Shown here piece by piece: positions 42,968 to 63,549 of a stretch of 64,000 bases of DNA (positions within the stretch are counted from its first letter, which is position 1; each line of letters opens with the position of its first letter). This DNA comes from a virus (Duplodnaviria > Heunggongvirae > Uroviricota > Caudoviricetes): the IMG/VR virus record IMGVR_UViG_3300023371_000071; one strand, given 5' to 3'. A program made the position numbers and the translations under genes. The notes under the pieces were generated by a model that did no database searches, was not told where the DNA came from, and saw nothing but the letters and a program-made list of their open reading frames with translations.

Positions 42968-44425
42968 ATGGGAACTATTTTTACTATTGTTGGTATTGTT
43001 CTTGTTGTTGCGGTAATTGTGATTCTGGCGACTATGAGTTATGTCAAGTGTCCGCCTGACCACGCGTTCCTTATCTCTGGTCCTCGCAAGGACTTGAAGA
43101 TTATCAGCGGTAAGGCTGGTTTCCGCATCCCCTTCATCGAACGACTGGATAAGCTATATCTGGGTGCTATCGGTGTTGACGTAAAGACCCGAAGCGCAGT
43201 GCCGACTGCTGAATATATTAACGTTTTTGTTGATGCCAATGTTAATATTCGCGTTAGTTCTAAGCCCGAGCTTATGGCTGTTGCCGCAAAGAATTTCCTG
43301 AATCAAAAGCGTGAAGTTATTTCTGCTAAGGCGCAGGAAGTGTTGGAAGGTAACGTCCGTGAAATCATTGGTCAGATGAAGCTGACTGAGATGGTCAGCG
43401 ATCGTCAGAAGTTTGCCAAGATGGTTCTGGATAATGCTGCTCCTGATATGGCTGAACTTGGTCTGGAAATCGTTTCCTTCAATGTTCAGAACTTTAAGGA
43501 TGAAAATGGCGTTATTGATGACCTGGGTATCGACAACGTTGAGCAGATCAAGAAGAATGCTGCCATTGCTAAGTCTGACGCGAAGCGTGAAATCGCTATT
43601 CAGGAAGCTGAAAACCAGCGTCGTGCCAATGAAGCTCAGGTTCAGGCAGCTACTCAGATTGCCGAGCAGAACACTGCTCTGGATATGCGTGCCGCAGAAC
43701 TGAAGAGTCAGTCTGAAGTGAAGCGTGCGGCTGCTGATATGGCTTACGACATTCAGAAGGCTGATCAGAAGAAGGAACTGGACGTTGCAATGACCAATGC
43801 CAGCATCGCTCAGGCCGAGCGTGAAGTTGAGCTGCAGACCCAGAAGATCGCTCTGAAGGAAAAGGAACTGGACGCGCTAGTCCGCAAGGAAGCCGATGCT
43901 CAGCTGTATAAGACTCAGAAGATGGCTGAGGCTGAGCTGATTAAGCGTCAGAAGGATGCAGAAGCTAAGGCTTATGAAGAAGTCCAGAGAGCCGAAGCTG
44001 AACAGCGTGCGGCAGCTGCCCGTGCCGAAGCTATGAAGGCGGAAGCCGAAGCTCGCAAGTATGCGGCTGAACAAGAAGCTGCTGGTATTGCCGCTAAGTA
44101 CCAGGCAGAAGCCGATGGTATTCGTGCCAAGGGTCTTGCTGAGGCTGAAGGTATCGACAAGAAGGCCGAAGCCCAGAAGAAGATGGGTGAAGCCTCTGTT
44201 CTGGAAATGTACTTCCAGGCTATGCCTCTGATTGCCAAGGCTGTTGCTGAGCCTCTGTCCAATGTTGATTCCATCACCATGTACGGTGAAGGCAATCAGG
44301 CCAAGATGGTTCAGGATATCACCACTACCATGTCTCAGATCATGGCTGGTGTGAAGGATTCCACTGGTATTGACCCGCAGGCACTGCTTGCTGGCTTCAT
44401 CGGTGGTAAGGCTGCTCAGGAATAA
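42968..44425 (+). CDS. SPFH/band-7 (flotillin-like) protein with long C-terminal coiled coil
   Basis: N-terminal TM plus SPFH core, then EA/KA-rich coiled coil; AAAAAGGAG RBS. Confidence 0.7.
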   Translation: MGTIFTIVGIVLVVAVIVILATMSYVKCPPDHAFLISGPRKDLKIISGKAGFRIPFIERLDKLYLGAIGVDVKTRSAVPTAEYINVFVDANVNIRVSSKPELMAVAAKNFLNQKREVISAKAQEVLEGNVREIIGQMKLTEMVSDRQKFAKMVLDNAAPDMAELGLEIVSFNVQNFKDENGVIDDLGIDNVEQIKKNAAIAKSDAKREIAIQEAENQRRANEAQVQAATQIAEQNTALDMRAAELKSQSEVKRAAADMAYDIQKADQKKELDVAMTNASIAQAEREVELQTQKIALKEKELDALVRKEADAQLYKTQKMAEAELIKRQKDAEAKAYEEVQRAEAEQRAAAARAEAMKAEAEARKYAAEQEAAGIAAKYQAEADGIRAKGLAEAEGIDKKAEAQKKMGEASVLEMYFQAMPLIAKAVAEPLSNVDSITMYGEGNQAKMVQDITTTMSQIMAGVKDSTGIDPQALLAGFIGGKAAQE

Positions 44426-44476: not shown

Positions 44477-44665
44477 ATGACTGAATTGGATAAAAAGTTT
44501 CGACAGGAATATTATGATCTAAGTGCCAAGTATGAGGCAGAATGTAATCGAATTGATGAAGAGATTGCAAAATTGCACGAATATCGTATTAAATGCCGTG
44601 ACCAGTATATCGCAGACCTCCAACACCTAAAAGAAGAACATCTTGCTAAAGGAGGACACTTCTAA
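44477..44665 (+). CDS. small coiled-coil protein
   Basis: TTAGGAGG RBS. Confidence 0.4.
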   Translation: MTELDKKFRQEYYDLSAKYEAECNRIDEEIAKLHEYRIKCRDQYIADLQHLKEEHLAKGGHF

Positions 44666-44877
44666 TGGATATAGAGCGACGCAAGAAAATTATTGCTCTA
44701 AAAATAAATGACATATTAGCAAAACGCGATCAAAAAATTGACCTTATAAATGAGAAACAAAAAAAGTTGAATGCTGAACGTTCTGCTGTATATACCCAAT
44801 ATCAAATACATCTTGATGAATTACAAGAAGAATTAGACTCCCTCAACGGCCGTAGTTTCGGAAAATCACACCCATAG
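44665..44877 (+). CDS. small coiled-coil protein (only TAG-terminated ORF found)
   Basis: coupled ATG; ends at TAG 44875..44877. Confidence 0.35.
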   Translation: MDIERRKKIIALKINDILAKRDQKIDLINEKQKKLNAERSAVYTQYQIHLDELQEELDSLNGRSFGKSHP

Positions 44878-44897
44878 AAAAATTTTGAGCAAATTGG

Positions 44898-44926
44898 TTG
44901 ACACAAGTGAAAAATTATTTTATAAT
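44898..44926 (+). promoter_or_regulatory. sigma70-consensus promoter (TTGACA-17-TATAAT)
   Basis: ttgacacaagtgaaaaattattttataat; differs from the phage cassette. Confidence 0.5.
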
Positions 44927-45431: not shown

Positions 45432-45804
45432 TGCTTTTGTTCATGCACTACAAACATATGGAGAAAATTTGTTTGAATTGATTCCTGTGCATGGAAAATT
45501 GTTTGTTGATGAAAATACTCTATGCGGACATAGAGAAATTGTTCGTGCTCATTTAGATGATACATGGATCAAACCTATTATTCACCACTGGTTTGAAATT
45601 GAATCTCCACCACCTTTCGGCTATACCGATGAAATTTCAATGATTGCAAAATTATCTGAAATTTATCCAGATAATGTTATTGTTGTAGTCGATAAATTGC
45701 GGGAATATTCTCGTTTAAATCGTGAATATGCCAACGATGAACTATATAATACAGAAGATCTTTGGAATTTAATTGAGGAGGCAAAAAAGAATAATGCTCA
45801 CTGA
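45394..45804 (+). CDS. hypothetical protein
   Basis: 136-aa ORF overlapping both neighbours. Confidence 0.4.
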   Translation: MPMQKPRIAFTANAFVHALQTYGENLFELIPVHGKLFVDENTLCGHREIVRAHLDDTWIKPIIHHWFEIESPPPFGYTDEISMIAKLSEIYPDNVIVVVDKLREYSRLNREYANDELYNTEDLWNLIEEAKKNNAH

Positions 45805-47434
45805 TATTGAAATCGCACAGAAATCAGAAATGTTACCTATTTCTGACATTATGTATCAACTGAATAAGTATAATTATGAGCCATATGGAAAATATAAGGC
45901 TAAATTGAAATATGATGATTTTGGCGACAAGAAAGGTAAGTTAATTCTTGTTACTGCAATGAACCCTACCCCTATGGGTGAAGGTAAAACTACTATGAGC
46001 ATTGGTCTTGCCGATGGTTTACGTCAAATTGGCGAAGATTCTATTCTTGCTCTACGTGAGCCTTCTCTTGGCCCTGTGTTTGGTTTAAAAGGCGGTGCCG
46101 CCGGTGGTGGATACGCACAGGTCGTTCCCATGGAGGATATTAATCTACACTTCACTGGTGACTTACATGCCATTGAAAATGCGAATAATCTACTCGCCGC
46201 AATGATTGATAATCATATTTATCAAGGTAATGCTCTCAATATTCAAAAAGTAACTTGGCGTCGCTGCATGGATATGAATGATCGTCAGTTACGCAATATT
46301 ACTTCTGGTCTTGGCGCAAAAACGGATGGTGTACCAAGAGATGATGGATTTGATATCACTGTAGCTTCTGAAGTTATGGCCATCTTCTGTTTAGCTAACA
46401 ATTTGGAAGAGTTAAAGCTCAGTCTGGGTGAAATTATTATTGGCTATAATGGCGATGGAATGCCTGTATATGCCAAAGAACTCAAGGCTGAAGGTGCTAT
46501 GACAGCTTTGCTCAAGGATGCTTTTAATCCTAATATTGTACAGACTCTTGAGCATACTCCCGCGATTATCCATGGTGGACCTTTTGCTAATATTGCGCAC
46601 GGTTGTAATAGTATCGTAGCCACTAAATTAGCTATGAGTCTTGCAGATTATGTTGTAACTGAAGCTGGTTTTGGCGCAGATCTTGGTGCAGAAAAATTCC
46701 TTGATATTAAGTGCCCTCGTGCTGGAATCACACCTAATGCTATTGTAATTGTAGCCACTACCAAGGCTATTAAGTATAATGGCGGCATCCATAAGGATCA
46801 TGTAAAAGAACCTAATATGGAAGCAATGCAAAAGGGAATTGTGAATCTTCAACATCATGTAAAGACAATGCAAAGCTATGGCGTTCCTGTTATTGTCGCA
46901 ATTAATAAATATGATACTGATCTTGAAGAAGAATTGAATTATATTATTAAAAATTGCGGTGCAGATTGTGCTATTTGTACTGCCCACGCAGAAGGTGGAA
47001 AGGGCGCGACGAACCTTGCTCATATGGTGCTTAATGCCTTGAAAGAGAATGTCACTCTTAATCATCCTTATGATGTAACTTTTGATAATGGAAATATTTT
47101 CAAAAAGATGGAAGATTTGGCATATAAGTTCTATGGTGCTGGTAGTATTGTTTGGTCTTCAAAAGCAGCACTTGCAATGCGAGATTTTGAGCGACTTGGT
47201 TGCGGACATTACCCTATTTGTGTAGCTAAAACCCAGTATAGTATCAGTGATAATGCCCAACTCTTGGGTGAACCAAAAGATTTTCCAATTGAAATTCGAG
47301 ATTTAATTTTGTGTCATGGAGCAGGTTTTATTGTTGCCGTCTGCGGCAAGATTATGCGCATGCCCGGTCTCCCGAAGATTCCGGCGGCAGAAAATATTGA
47401 TGTTGTAAATGGTAAAATTGTTGGACTATTCTAA
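45794..47434 (+). CDS. fhs: formate--tetrahydrofolate ligase (FTHFS)
   Basis: MLTDIEIAQ N-terminus and PTPMGEGKTT signature; ~546 aa; GAGGAGG RBS. Confidence 0.85.
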   Translation: MLTDIEIAQKSEMLPISDIMYQLNKYNYEPYGKYKAKLKYDDFGDKKGKLILVTAMNPTPMGEGKTTMSIGLADGLRQIGEDSILALREPSLGPVFGLKGGAAGGGYAQVVPMEDINLHFTGDLHAIENANNLLAAMIDNHIYQGNALNIQKVTWRRCMDMNDRQLRNITSGLGAKTDGVPRDDGFDITVASEVMAIFCLANNLEELKLSLGEIIIGYNGDGMPVYAKELKAEGAMTALLKDAFNPNIVQTLEHTPAIIHGGPFANIAHGCNSIVATKLAMSLADYVVTEAGFGADLGAEKFLDIKCPRAGITPNAIVIVATTKAIKYNGGIHKDHVKEPNMEAMQKGIVNLQHHVKTMQSYGVPVIVAINKYDTDLEEELNYIIKNCGADCAICTAHAEGGKGATNLAHMVLNALKENVTLNHPYDVTFDNGNIFKKMEDLAYKFYGAGSIVWSSKAALAMRDFERLGCGHYPICVAKTQYSISDNAQLLGEPKDFPIEIRDLILCHGAGFIVAVCGKIMRMPGLPKIPAAENIDVVNGKIVGLF

Positions 47435-53565: not shown

Positions 53566-54714
53566 ATGTATCCTGAAGCTCTTATTATTGAACCTATGAA
53601 AATTAACAAAATTCCAGAGGGGAAGGAACATATGTTTCCTTCCCTCTGCGAAAGCGGAGAGTATTTCGCCCAGCTAAAGAAAGATGGTTACTGGTATATG
53701 TATGAAAAGACTGAAAATCATGCCTACCTTTTTAGTCGTACAACCAGTGCTGTTACTGGTACTCTTGCCGAGAAGGGTGCTAATGTACCTCATATTATGG
53801 AGGTTTTAAATCATCTTCCTGCGGGCACTATTTTGATTGGAGAAATTTATTATCCCGGCAAGAGAAGTAAAGATGTAACTCCTATCATGGGCAGTTTACC
53901 TGAAAAAGCTATTGAACGTCAGAACGGTGAATATGGTTATTTACATTACTATATCCATGATATGATTCGATACAAGGGAAAGGATCTGACTTCTTGTGGT
54001 GCAGGAATTCGTTACGATCTTCTCAAGAGAGTGTTCGATCTTCATTTACTGGGTAATTATACCATTGGTGATGATCATTTTATTGAACTTGCTGAACGAA
54101 TTGATGAAAATATTCAAGAGTTTGTTGCTGACGCTCTTGAGCGAGGAGAAGAAGGAGCTGTCCTCAAAAAGAAAACCGCTCCATACACTCCAGGAAAACG
54201 ACCCGCATGGGATACAATAAAAATTAAGAAAACTGATACTTGTGATGCTATTTGTATTGGTTTCTGTGCTCCAACCATTGAATATACTGGTAAAGAAATT
54301 GAAACTTGGCCGTATTGGTGCGCGTATATGGGTGAAAATGGTACAGGTGAAGAGGGAACAGATCGTACTGAATGGGTGCGCATGCCGCTCGACACTTATT
54401 ATGAGCAGTCTAAACAAAATCCTGAGCTGTGGACTCCTGTAACTAAAGCGTATTATTATGGTTGGGTTACTTCTATGCGCGTTGGTGCATATGACGATAA
54501 TGGTAAAGTTATTGAAATTGGTACTGTATCTTCTGGCATGACAGAAGAGCTTGAAGCAGATGCTGCGGCTCGTCCATGGATGTACCTTGGAAAAGTTGTT
54601 AAACTTGCAGGAATGGAAAAAGATCGAACTGCAAAAACTCTTCGACATTTCTATTTTAAAGGGTTTCATACAGATAAAGACCCTAGGGATTGTTTAATTA
54701 AAGAAATTTTTTGA
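53566..54714 (+). CDS. ATP-dependent polynucleotide ligase (KxDG nucleotidyltransferase; DNA ligase more likely than RNA ligase)
   Basis: motif I QLKKDGYW; GAAGGAGAA RBS before ATG 53566; sits in the replication module. Confidence 0.5.
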   Translation: MYPEALIIEPMKINKIPEGKEHMFPSLCESGEYFAQLKKDGYWYMYEKTENHAYLFSRTTSAVTGTLAEKGANVPHIMEVLNHLPAGTILIGEIYYPGKRSKDVTPIMGSLPEKAIERQNGEYGYLHYYIHDMIRYKGKDLTSCGAGIRYDLLKRVFDLHLLGNYTIGDDHFIELAERIDENIQEFVADALERGEEGAVLKKKTAPYTPGKRPAWDTIKIKKTDTCDAICIGFCAPTIEYTGKEIETWPYWCAYMGENGTGEEGTDRTEWVRMPLDTYYEQSKQNPELWTPVTKAYYYGWVTSMRVGAYDDNGKVIEIGTVSSGMTEELEADAAARPWMYLGKVVKLAGMEKDRTAKTLRHFYFKGFHTDKDPRDCLIKEIF

Positions 54715-54760
54715 CTTTTCAAAAAATTTTTAGTATAATATATATGTAAGATGAAGAAAG
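54709..54760 (+). promoter_or_regulatory. phage promoter cassette copy (variant)
   Basis: ttttgacttttcaaaaaatttttagtataatatatatgtaagatgaagaaagg. Confidence 0.55.
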
Positions 54761-54772
54761 GAAAAAATCACT

Positions 54773-54970
54773 GTGACTAAAAAACAGCTGAAACAGCTTG
54801 CTAAGAAGTTGGCAGATTATGAGTTCATTATTCAGACCTCAAATGACCCCTACAAGGTCAACGATGCTAAAGATCGTATTGCCCAGCTCACTGAATCTTC
54901 TGACCTCGAGATTGAAGATATGGTAAAACTCGACGACATGATTCAAGCAATGCTCAGTGAAAAAATTTGA
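54773..54970 (+). CDS. hypothetical small protein
   Basis: GTG start in ORF track, after promoter cassette. Confidence 0.35.
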   Translation: MTKKQLKQLAKKLADYEFIIQTSNDPYKVNDAKDRIAQLTESSDLEIEDMVKLDDMIQAMLSEKI

Positions 54971-55010
54971 CTTTTTTCAAAAAAAATTGTATAATATATA
55001 CAGTTAATAA
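54966..55010 (+). promoter_or_regulatory. phage promoter cassette copy (variant)
   Basis: tttgacttttttcaaaaaaaattgtataatatatacag. Confidence 0.45.
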
Positions 55011-55384: not shown

Positions 55385-55425
55385 CCATCGGGGCTGGTAT
55401 TCGGTTATCAGCCCCGATTTTTCTA
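55385..55425 (+). terminator. intrinsic terminator
   Basis: atcggggctggtattcggttatcagccccgat hairpin then TTTTC. Confidence 0.6.
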
Positions 55426-55438
55426 ACTTGAGGTAGAT

Positions 55439-56398
55439 ATGACCGGATTATGGATTTTTGAAATTGCATTACTAGCTCTGATAATCGGTATGCTTTGCTG
55501 GTTCCGGTCACGGCACTACGCAAAGTGGTCTGAATATCAAGAGCTTAAAAAAAAATGTGAGCAAGCTATTAAGGGAAGACAAGAGGCGGAATGCGCAGCG
55601 TAGGCAGCGTTATCTGCAGAGACGCTCGCTAAGTAGAACTTACAATCAATTAACGAAAATGTAAGACTTGGCAATGAATAGCTTCGCAACAATGAGCAAG
55701 CTTTAATAGATCAAGAGCGTATTGTAAGAGAAAAAATTGAATATGAACGATCCATATGGTTAAAAAATATGGAAGAAGAGCAGCAAGCAATATTGCTTGA
55801 GACCCAAAAGGAGTTTGCAGAACAGTTCGCCGCAAGCAATCAACAAAAACTTGCGGCTGCGCGACAACTCACCGAACAAGTAATTCAGCTCAAGTCAACT
55901 GTTGCCTCTGCTGTCGAAATTGCAAAACATAAGATGGAAGAAGAATCTGCCGCAGAATTTTATAAATTACAATTGCCGCAAGAAAGTTTAAATGATATTG
56001 AAGCACTTCGTTCTATTGAATCGCTCTTGCATAATTCAGAAGCGATTAATAAAGTGATTTGGAAGATGTATTATGAAAAACCTTATACAGACTTGATTGG
56101 TCGTATTGGACTTACAAGTACTGTTTGTGGCATTTATAAAATTACCAATATTGAAAATCAGATGACATATGTTGGTTAGGCTGTAAATATCGCAGACCGT
56201 TGGAAACAACATATTAAGCGTGGTATTGGTGCAGATGCTCCTACATAGAACAAACTTTACCCCGCAATGAAAAAATTTGGTCCAGAAAATTTTACTTTTG
56301 AAATTATTGAAAAGTGTTCTCGTGATAAACTCAATGAGCGAGAAGATTACTGGCAAGAGTTTTATAAAGCAAAAGAATTTGGATACAGTATAAAGTGA
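55439..56398 (+). CDS. GIY-YIG homing-endonuclease-like protein with five in-frame TAG codons (read-through model)
   Basis: one frame is open from ATG 55439 to TGA 56396..56398 except for TAG at 55601, 55634, 55679, 56177 and 56246; C-terminus CGIYKITNIENQMTYVG[TAG]AVNIADRWKQHIKRG...APT[TAG]NKLYPAMKKFGPENFTFEIIE matches the I-TevI GIY-YIG core, with both TAGs falling at Ser positions. Confidence 0.5.
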
Positions 56399-62448: not shown

Positions 62449-63549
62449 ATGATGAAATATGACAAGGATGAAATCAAAGGAAAATTAACCACCGATATGG
62501 TGTTTGATATTGTTGAAGAATTGGGCGGCGACCCTCGCAAAACAGATTTTGGTTTTATCTCTGCCACTATTTGTCATAATGAGCCGGGCGAGGGCTCTCA
62601 CAAATTATATTATTATGAGAACACCGCCCTATTTCGTTGTTATACTGGCTGTGACAGCTATTTTGATATATTCGAGTTAATTGCAAAAATAAAAGAAGTT
62701 CGTAGCTCAGAGGAATGGGGTCTATATGACTCTGTTCGCTGGGTTGCTGGACGTTACGGCTGGGGTCCAACTGTCGAAGATGATGAGGACGTTCCAAATC
62801 TCGCAGACTGGAAGTTATTAGAAAAATATGATAAACTCCATACTGAGAAAAAGGAAAGTCGAAACATTCAATTACCAGAATACGATCAAACAATTCTAAA
62901 AAATCTTTCATATCCAAATATCGCCGATTGGACGGATGAGGGAATTACAAGAGAGGTTCAACTGGCTAATCTTATTGGATATTATCCATCAGGTGAACAA
63001 ATTACGATTCCACATTTTGATATTAATGGACGTTTTGTTGGATTGCGCGGAAGATCTTTAGGACAAGATGATGCAGATCGTTTTGGTAAATATCGACCCC
63101 TAATAGTTGGTAAGGAAATGTATAATCATTCTCTTGGCTTGAATCTGTATAATATCAATAATAGCGCTCCACATATCAAAGTAGCTAAAACTGCAATTGT
63201 GTTTGAAGGCGAAAAATCATGTCTTTTGTATCAATCTTATTTTGGACGAGAGAATGATATTTCTGTGGCCTGTTGTGGCTCTGCTGTCAGCTCAATCCAA
63301 ATGTCAATTCTTCTAAATCTTGGTGTAAAAGAAATAGTAATTGCTTTTGATAGGCAGTTCCAAAAGAAGAATGATGAAGAGTTCAAACGCTTGGTAAAAA
63401 ATTTAAAGGCTATAAAAGCACGATATGGACAGTATGCAACTATATCTTTTATGTTCGATACAGAAGATGTATTACCTTATAAAGCATCTCCCATTGACTG
63501 CGGGCCAACGGTATTTTTAGATATGTTTAAGAAGAGGATTATTTTGTAA
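62449..63549 (+). CDS. DNA primase (zinc-ribbon + Toprim, DnaG-like)
   Basis: CHNEPGEGSHKLYYYENTALFRCYTGCD zinc-binding motif; Toprim IVFEGEKSCLL plus VIAFDRQ. Confidence 0.6.
   Translation: MMKYDKDEIKGKLTTDMVFDIVEELGGDPRKTDFGFISATICHNEPGEGSHKLYYYENTALFRCYTGCDSYFDIFELIAKIKEVRSSEEWGLYDSVRWVAGRYGWGPTVEDDEDVPNLADWKLLEKYDKLHTEKKESRNIQLPEYDQTILKNLSYPNIADWTDEGITREVQLANLIGYYPSGEQITIPHFDINGRFVGLRGRSLGQDDADRFGKYRPLIVGKEMYNHSLGLNLYNINNSAPHIKVAKTAIVFEGEKSCLLYQSYFGRENDISVACCGSAVSSIQMSILLNLGVKEIVIAFDRQFQKKNDEEFKRLVKNLKAIKARYGQYATISFMFDTEDVLPYKASPIDCGPTVFLDMFKKRIIL

Follow-up and report, generated by a model that had tools for sequence, protein, structure and literature searches.

Phages that read the amber codon TAG as glutamine (genetic code 15) and carry their own suppressor tRNA have been described among the crAss-like, Lak and Garnet phages and related clades (Borges et al., 10.1101/2021.08.26.457843), and code 15 has been confirmed by proteomics in crAss-like phages (Peters et al., PMC9523058). 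Another code-15 phage, phAss-1, had its glutamine assigned with tRNAscan-SE (Babkin et al., PMC10607447). According to a published model, in-frame recoded stop codons block translation until the suppressor tRNA becomes available, and the preferentially TGA-recoded group I intron endonuclease found in an early gene of Agate phages has been read as a case of production being delayed in this way (10.1101/2021.08.26.457843).

Our analysis concerns a nuclease gene on a 64,000-nt stretch of viral DNA (the window) that belongs to a ~168-kb, SPbeta-like phage using code 15 (TAG = Gln). This phage behaves like the published code-15 phages in that in-frame TAGs of conserved genes face Gln in homologs, TAG does not serve as a terminator, a tRNA(CUA) is encoded by the phage itself, and an early region compatible with the standard code is combined with a recoded late region. 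The window holds a tRNA array and genes of nucleotide, RNA and DNA metabolism, among them those for topoisomerase II, DNA ligase, DnaB, primase and RNA ligase and several metabolic genes, and no structural genes. With a probability of roughly 85%, we read the nuclease gene as an intact, functional gene of a phage in which TAG means Gln and is decoded by the phage's own Gln-like suppressor, and its product as a membrane-anchored GIY-YIG nuclease whose production would be delayed and gated by that suppressor. The gene and its signals are as follows:

55387-55418, + strand: intrinsic-terminator-like hairpin of 13 pairs followed by TTTTT, ending 20 nt before the ATG (sequence scan)
55430-55434, + strand: ribosome-binding site GAGGT, 4 nt 5' of the ATG (read from the sequence)
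55439-56398, + strand: GIY-YIG nuclease gene, 319 codons from ATG to TGA, with a 319-aa product (translation)
55601-55603, + strand: TAG codon 55, a variable coiled-coil position; GAA, TTA and TCA in relatives, mostly Q/E in the wider-family column
55634-55636, + strand: TAG codon 66; TAG, CAG and CAA in relatives
55679-55681, + strand: TAG codon 81, in the E-Q-L motif; TAG, CAA, TAG and CAG in relatives, Q being commonest in the family column
56177-56179, + strand: TAG codon 247, in the Y-V-G-Q-A motif of the nuclease core; TAG or CAR (Gln) in homologs
56246-56248, + strand: TAG codon 270, in P-T-Q-N-K-L; TAG, GCA, TAG and AAC in relatives, R/Q/K/N in the family column

Translation of 55439-56398 on the + strand gives a frame with five in-frame TAGs (codons 55, 66, 81, 247 and 270), no in-frame TAA or TGA and no frame shift. 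That this frame is open is not a matter of chance, because the remaining two frames of the same interval hold 17 and 30 TAA plus TGA codons. Four contigs of this phage, assembled independently of one another, all have these five TAGs. The closest homologs show a 'Q' at these sites, which results from code-15 gene calling; the identical five TAGs are present in their DNA.

The window contains 53 ORFs of at least 100 codons. TAG is the stop codon of none of them (P ~2e-4 if the TAG share were 15%), and just two contain it in frame, namely the nuclease gene with its five and a ThiF-family gene with one:

21244-21954, + strand: ThiF-family (E1-like) gene within the tRNA array (Pfam ThiF over residues 8-227, E=9e-26)
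21376-21378, + strand: in-frame TAG at codon 45 of the ThiF-family gene, inside the Pfam match (translation)

The 30 kb of flanks, taken from both sides, contain no TAG-containing gene save a short ORF ending TAG-TGA, and in ~94 kb of the ~168-kb phage there is no TAG stop except one TAG directly before TGA. Short ORFs in which TAG is followed by TGA at once or within 7 codons (contig L084, 8403-8588; window, 44665-44901) look as if they once ended on TAG and are now secured by a second stop, as has been described for other phages with suppressor tRNAs (PMC12386605). The structural module was reached by an IMG/VR scan with a TerL alignment and confirmed by a blastn overlap: the flanking contig L124 overlaps the IMG/VR contig L207 with 99.7% identity over 4 kb, and L207 continues into an SPbeta-like structural module with 2 TAGs in TerL and as many as 11 (44 per 1000 codons) in other genes. 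This overlap and the TAG-rich structural genes therefore indicate that the phage is recoded genome-wide, its early genes being readable under the standard code and its late genes using TAG. The same early/late pattern is repeated in a relative with both regions on one contig (L042, L187) and in the complete genome of phAss-1.

The lineage consists of ~168-kb genomes from ENA, Logan and JGI metagenomes, none of which is in the GenBank phage collection searched: megablast of the 4 kb around the nuclease gene against GenBank phages returned no match, and tblastn with the topoisomerase gave no match of more than 45% identity and no annotated close relative in that collection. There was also no match in a scan of metagenome contigs with a flank protein, and this phage's TerL was not among the best 120 matches of a search with the TerL of phAss-1. 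P0278, a match from that search, proved to be a relative with the standard code and to come from other samples.

Of the 33 tRNA genes in the window, a single one has the anticodon CUA; the following two bear on the decoding of TAG:

19471-19561, + strand: tRNA(CUA) amber suppressor, 91 nt, CCA encoded (ARAGORN)
18007-18081, + strand: phage tRNA-Gln(CUG), closest to the 5' half of the suppressor (tRNA comparison)

The acceptor stem of the suppressor (AGGGGAG/CUCCCCC) starts with an A1.C72 mismatch, followed by G2-C71 and G3-C70, and the discriminator is G73. Its D arm, with G10, a 4-bp stem and a 7-nt loop, is nearly identical to that of the phage's tRNA-Gln(CUG), which over the first 26 nt (acceptor and D arm) is the closest of the 32 other tRNAs in the window. 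The E. coli suppressor supE is a tRNA-Gln whose anticodon has changed from CUG to CUA; the phage suppressor resembles it as an amber suppressor with the acceptor stem and D arm of tRNA-Gln, one anticodon base away from tRNA-Gln(CUG), but differs from it by the A1.C72 mismatch, where supE has U1-A72, and by a variable region of 20-21 nt that forms a short hairpin with a stem of 3-4 bp. The identity elements for Gln are the acceptor stem, the discriminator, the 10-25 pair and U35; the indirect pathway requires a first pair of the U1-A72 type, and G1-C72 acts there as an antideterminant (PMC9976931). Of the supE-like traits that we took from this source, the suppressor shows the weak or absent 1:72 pair, G2-C71, G3-C70, G10, G73 and U35, and it departs from supE-like tRNAs in lacking their short variable loop of 4-5 nt.

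A 75-nt Sup-CTA tRNA of phAss-1 has nearly the same acceptor stem as the suppressor in the window (UGGGGAG, U1.C72, G73), and beside it phAss-1 also has a 91-nt long-arm Sup-CTA, as the window does. In nine distinct CUA tRNAs with a long arm, taken from other viral contigs, compensatory changes preserve the cloverleaf, and the short extra hairpin is present. CUA suppressors of 88-93 nt form a family present on many viral contigs (L090-L121; L123, 17445-17610), with a Gln-like acceptor stem and D arm, a variable region of 20-21 nt with a short hairpin, and a 1:72 pair that is never G-C. We conclude from its acceptor stem and D arm that the suppressor is probably a tRNA-Gln derivative with an added arm, and some of it may be charged by SerRS. 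A search of the literature for long-arm Gln-type phage suppressors found no relevant description, and a Gln-like body with an extra arm would be a suppressor design undescribed so far. A search for a phage aminoacyl-tRNA synthetase covered the window's large ORFs of unknown function, which turned out to encode formate-THF ligase, vault-protein-like and flotillin-like proteins instead.

The C-terminal part of the predicted product falls within the GIY-YIG superfamily, both by profile and by fold. Pfam GIY-YIG (PF01541) is matched over residues 230-311 (E=3.9e-10), the score of 40.3 bits being above the curated cut-off of 22.6, and the PHROGs homing-endonuclease families match the same part of the protein. 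In Foldseek, the best solved match of the AlphaFold model (pLDDT 85) is the catalytic domain of I-TevI from phage T4 (1LN0/1MK0; TM 0.78-0.80, 31-33% identity), and the best viral models include two matches over the full length, both without names. The GIY and YVG motifs and the Arg, His and Glu of I-TevI are conserved: all of 30 homologs have Y233, Y244, R254, H258 and E302, which align with Y6, Y17, R27, H31 and E75 of I-TevI. The family differs from I-TevI in having Gln for the Ser after YVG and an invariant Ser (Ser317) at the position of the catalytic Asn90 (N90).

The architecture of the protein also sets it apart from I-TevI, in which an N-terminal catalytic domain is followed by a linker and a C-terminal DNA-binding domain. 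Here the order is reversed, with the nuclease domain at residues 230-318/319, and neither a linker nor a DNA-binding domain was detected, the latter having been looked for with Pfam and in the AlphaFold model. The model consists of a single helix (residues 3-174), a small helical domain (181-223) and the GIY-YIG domain (230-318). Residues ~4-22 at the N-terminus are hydrophobic and followed by basic residues, as in a membrane helix, and a coiled coil of ~150 residues comes after; the N-terminus has a weak Pfam match to DUF2570 (E=0.27). In four relatives with 98, 87, 81 and 66% identity, the neighbours are alike (ligase, 90-aa gene, nuclease gene, replication genes), and the same replication-gene families flank the nuclease homolog in 80 IMG/VR loci that carry it. 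The sporadic, mobile distribution expected of homing endonucleases is thus not seen in the loci examined, all of which carry the gene. With a C-terminal nuclease behind a membrane helix and coiled coil, and with fixed synteny in the loci examined, the identity of the protein as a homing endonuclease is doubtful, and we treat it as a predicted membrane-tethered nuclease. That it acts against host or incoming DNA is speculative.

What sets the nuclease gene apart from its surroundings is its TAG load. The TAG:CAR ratio is 5:20 in this gene versus 1:457 in all other genes of the window (Fisher P=1.4e-6). In relatives, the nuclease family has 13 TAG per 1000 codons, the highest value of 33 families, compared with 0.04-3.7 in neighbouring replication genes, and in recoded relatives the figures are 8-36 per 1000 codons in the nuclease family versus 0-4 in its neighbours. 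The homolog in phAss-1, a phage to which this lineage has a best protein identity of 35%, adjoins the two Sup-CTA tRNA genes and has 8 TAGs, corresponding to 24.5 per 1000 codons, a density like that of structural genes, between neighbours that are free of TAG. Its full frame of 326 codons lies on the minus strand (L123, 18005-18985 = OQ749652.1, 63005-63985), and the GenBank record annotates only the part after the last TAG (63005-63439). An HNH endonuclease gene in the window (35582-36223) has no TAG, and the TAG load is therefore not general to the endonuclease genes of this phage.

The terminator-like hairpin in front of the nuclease gene is kept in relatives with 66-87% protein identity, with one compensatory change, in L089, and no promoter-like site was found between the hairpin and the start of the nuclease gene. 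Two promoter-like sites with 11/12 matches (54711-54739 and 54967-54995) lie 5' of the upstream 90-aa gene. From the TAG load and the conserved terminator, the nuclease would be expected to be made late and to be suppressor-gated. The situation is reminiscent of the Agate case in that an endonuclease gene in an early region has recoded stops far in excess of its neighbours. It differs in that TAG is read as Gln, whereas in Agate phages TGA is read as Trp; the gene lies between other genes and is not part of an intron; in the protein, a membrane helix and a coiled coil take the place of the DNA-binding domain; and the conserved terminator would form a second barrier.

Homing endonuclease genes often decay, and the standard code breaks this frame five times, so the gene could be taken for a decaying pseudogene or a dead homing endonuclease whose TAGs are ordinary nonsense mutations. 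We hold this to be extremely unlikely. The interrupting codons are exclusively TAG and never TAA or TGA, there are no indels, and the gene has the same length in relatives with 45-98% identity; full-length homologs in the database are many (312-323 aa, 43-98% identity), and the DNA of relatives with 87, 81, 66 and ~60% protein identity keeps the gene length with 2-15 TAGs and without any TAA or TGA. Comparison of the nuclease gene with relatives gives dN/dS values of 0.08-0.24, the stretch downstream of the TAGs included, all three differences from contig L001 are at third codon positions, and the catalytic residues Y233, Y244, R254, H258 and E302 are invariant. Judged by its sequence evolution, the gene is under purifying selection and translated, and is no pseudogene. 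The original prediction, which had seen a single 960-nt frame broken only by five TAGs and had preferred codon reassignment to pseudogene decay, was borne out on both counts: translation confirmed the frame, and reassignment is supported by dN/dS values that signify purifying selection, by a frame kept without frameshifts or other stops in the relatives compared, by the exchange of TAG with CAR and by the absence of TAG stops. It went further in taking TAG to be read as serine through a Ser-type CUA tRNA. The match to the I-TevI core that it described, with TAGs facing Ser residues, does exist, as phmmer against the PDB aligns residues 230-318, the C-terminal third of the protein, with I-TevI residues 3-91 (E=4e-6), where TAG247 comes to lie opposite the Ser in YVGSAK and TAG270 opposite the second of the two in HSS-IKL. 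In addition, a long variable arm is a feature of tRNAs of the Ser/Leu/Tyr class, and the suppressor, at 91 nt, looks Ser-like because of its 20-21-nt variable region and G73, the two supD-like traits that it has and in which it resembles the phage's own tRNA-Ser genes. SerRS, moreover, does not use the anticodon (PMC9976931).

A serine reading is nonetheless very unlikely. It arose because the comparison was made with I-TevI, which is only ~32% identical and has Ser where the family has Gln. Codon 247, in the YVG-X-A motif, is TAG in 12-15 of 57-66 distinct IMG/VR homologs, CAA or CAG (Gln) in the remaining 45-51 and Ser in none, and close relatives have CAG or CAA at codons 66, 81 and 247, where the window has TAG; the Ser or TCN codons that a serine reading had led one to expect at the TAG positions of relatives are thus replaced by Gln alone at codon 247 and by CAR at codons 66 and 81. 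Among relatives, TAG is exchanged with CAA or CAG at codons 66, 81, 87, 115, 123, 129, 147, 150, 247, 257 and 306; three of these (247, 257 and 306) belong to the nuclease core and are invariantly Gln, and L089 has TAG at both 257 and 306. When all ORFs of 80 related loci were clustered into 33 families and the well-conserved columns holding TAG were examined, Gln was found in 13 of 21 such columns and Ser in 1 of 21 (56 and 1, respectively, of 68 TAG occurrences), although Gln accounts for only 2% of conserved columns overall; in the large terminases (TerL) of the clade, Gln occupies 11 of 15 conserved TAG-holding columns. Codons 55 and 270 align with variable residues and give little information on the amino acid, and the two TAGs of this phage's own TerL, in a variable N-terminal stretch, carry no amino-acid signal. 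The suppressor for its part has neither the G1-C72 nor the A3-U70 of the phage's own three tRNA-Ser genes, which start with GGAG; its D stem of 4 bp and loop of 7 nt are as in tRNA-Gln, so that neither a Ser acceptor stem nor a Ser D arm accompanies TAGs that face Gln and not Ser; its variable stem has merely 3-4 bp; and G1-C72 occurs in 0 of the 9 related long-arm CUA tRNAs. Of the Ser-type tRNA first proposed, what stands is that a phage tRNA(CUA) accompanies the reassignment; its acceptor stem, D arm and discriminator are Gln-like. TAG = Gln in this phage group, as in published code-15 phages, is supported by these comparisons, and the codon assignment is corrected from Ser to Gln. With glutamine accepted, the density of TAG in the nuclease gene might still have no regulatory role, having arisen by neutral accumulation of C-to-T changes in CAG or been inherited from a heavily recoded donor. 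The enrichment could reflect weak selection on a lowly expressed gene: accumulation would be expected in a gene that is Gln-rich, fast-evolving and weakly expressed, TAG positions turn over quickly between relatives, the majority of the TAGs are in the variable coiled coil, and some other small families in the related loci reach 5-12 TAG per 1000 codons. We see in this a serious competitor that is on the whole unlikely, as the enrichment recurs beside zero-TAG genes in nearly every recoded relative and in phAss-1, and survives normalisation to Gln codons (5/25 in the nuclease gene versus 1/458 elsewhere in the window), and as TAG also occupies the invariant core positions 247, 257 and 306. A recent transfer is made less likely by synteny, the gene lying between the ligase gene and the replication genes in relatives with the standard code and in recoded ones alike.

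In the preferred reading, that of an intact nuclease gene gated by the suppressor, the surrounding early and replication genes, which avoid TAG, would be translatable by the unmodified host. The phage would read TAG as Gln, its own Gln-like tRNA(CUA) decoding the five TAGs of the nuclease gene after being charged with Gln, most likely by the glutamine pathway of the host. The product would be a membrane-anchored coiled-coil protein with a cytoplasmic, C-terminal I-TevI-like GIY-YIG nuclease, made only once the suppressor has accumulated and transcription has read through the terminator. We infer this regulatory gating from the codon distribution and the terminator motif.

Several other features of the phage deserve mention. 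An 823-aa protein with the shoulder and repeat domains of Major Vault Protein (PF11978, E=1e-21; PF17795) is encoded at 30779-33250 of the window, and a 485-aa SPFH/flotillin protein at 42968-44425, near the vault-like gene; both are unusual cargo for a phage. Auxiliary metabolic genes encode a formate-tetrahydrofolate ligase (E=1e-238), a SAM synthetase, a CitMHS transporter, FolD and a DAHP-synthase-family protein (window, 45794-47434, 26541-27611 and 9787-11133; L084, 1963-2796; L085, 12572-13321), alongside which NrdD and a GmrSD_N protein are also present. The one-carbon genes could be a hint of DNA modification or of a host resembling acetogens. Beside the tRNA array lies an RNA-repair-like set comprising a phrog_850 'RNA-binding protein', a nucleotidyltransferase, two metallophosphoesterases and an RNA ligase (window, 28687-30201, 33588-35197, 36881-38323 and 40111-40944). 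Antisense 'shadow' ORFs of 400-650 codons run opposite real genes of the + strand (window, 991-2790, 28327-29745 and 30719-32677, all on the - strand, and others) and would mislead length-based gene calling when TAG counts as a sense codon.

A more far-reaching proposal, which we put forward tentatively and think quite improbable, is that the suppressors, as a widespread family, are tRNA-Gln bodies that have gained a class-II-like arm and that the conserved membrane-tethered nuclease is silenced by its terminator and TAG load until the code switches, to act as a late effector. If this were true, the extra arm might be a handle for a phage factor, a shield from host nucleases or a tuner of charging, and the late effector would act, for example, against host or superinfecting-phage DNA at the membrane and would not be a homing endonuclease.

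The identification of the window as part of a code-15 phage means that annotation with the standard code would break the nuclease gene as well as the late genes, an error that the phAss-1 record in GenBank already shows for the homolog. The code-15 phenomenon itself is already known; it is usefully extended here by this lineage, by a conserved nuclease gene in which TAGs are concentrated just after a terminator and by a Gln-like suppressor with a long arm, none of which amounts to a new kind of system. The nuclease gene provides a second clear example, conserved in its clade, of an early-region nuclease gene singled out for recoded stops, and the published idea that recoding times expression would thereby become testable on one small gene.
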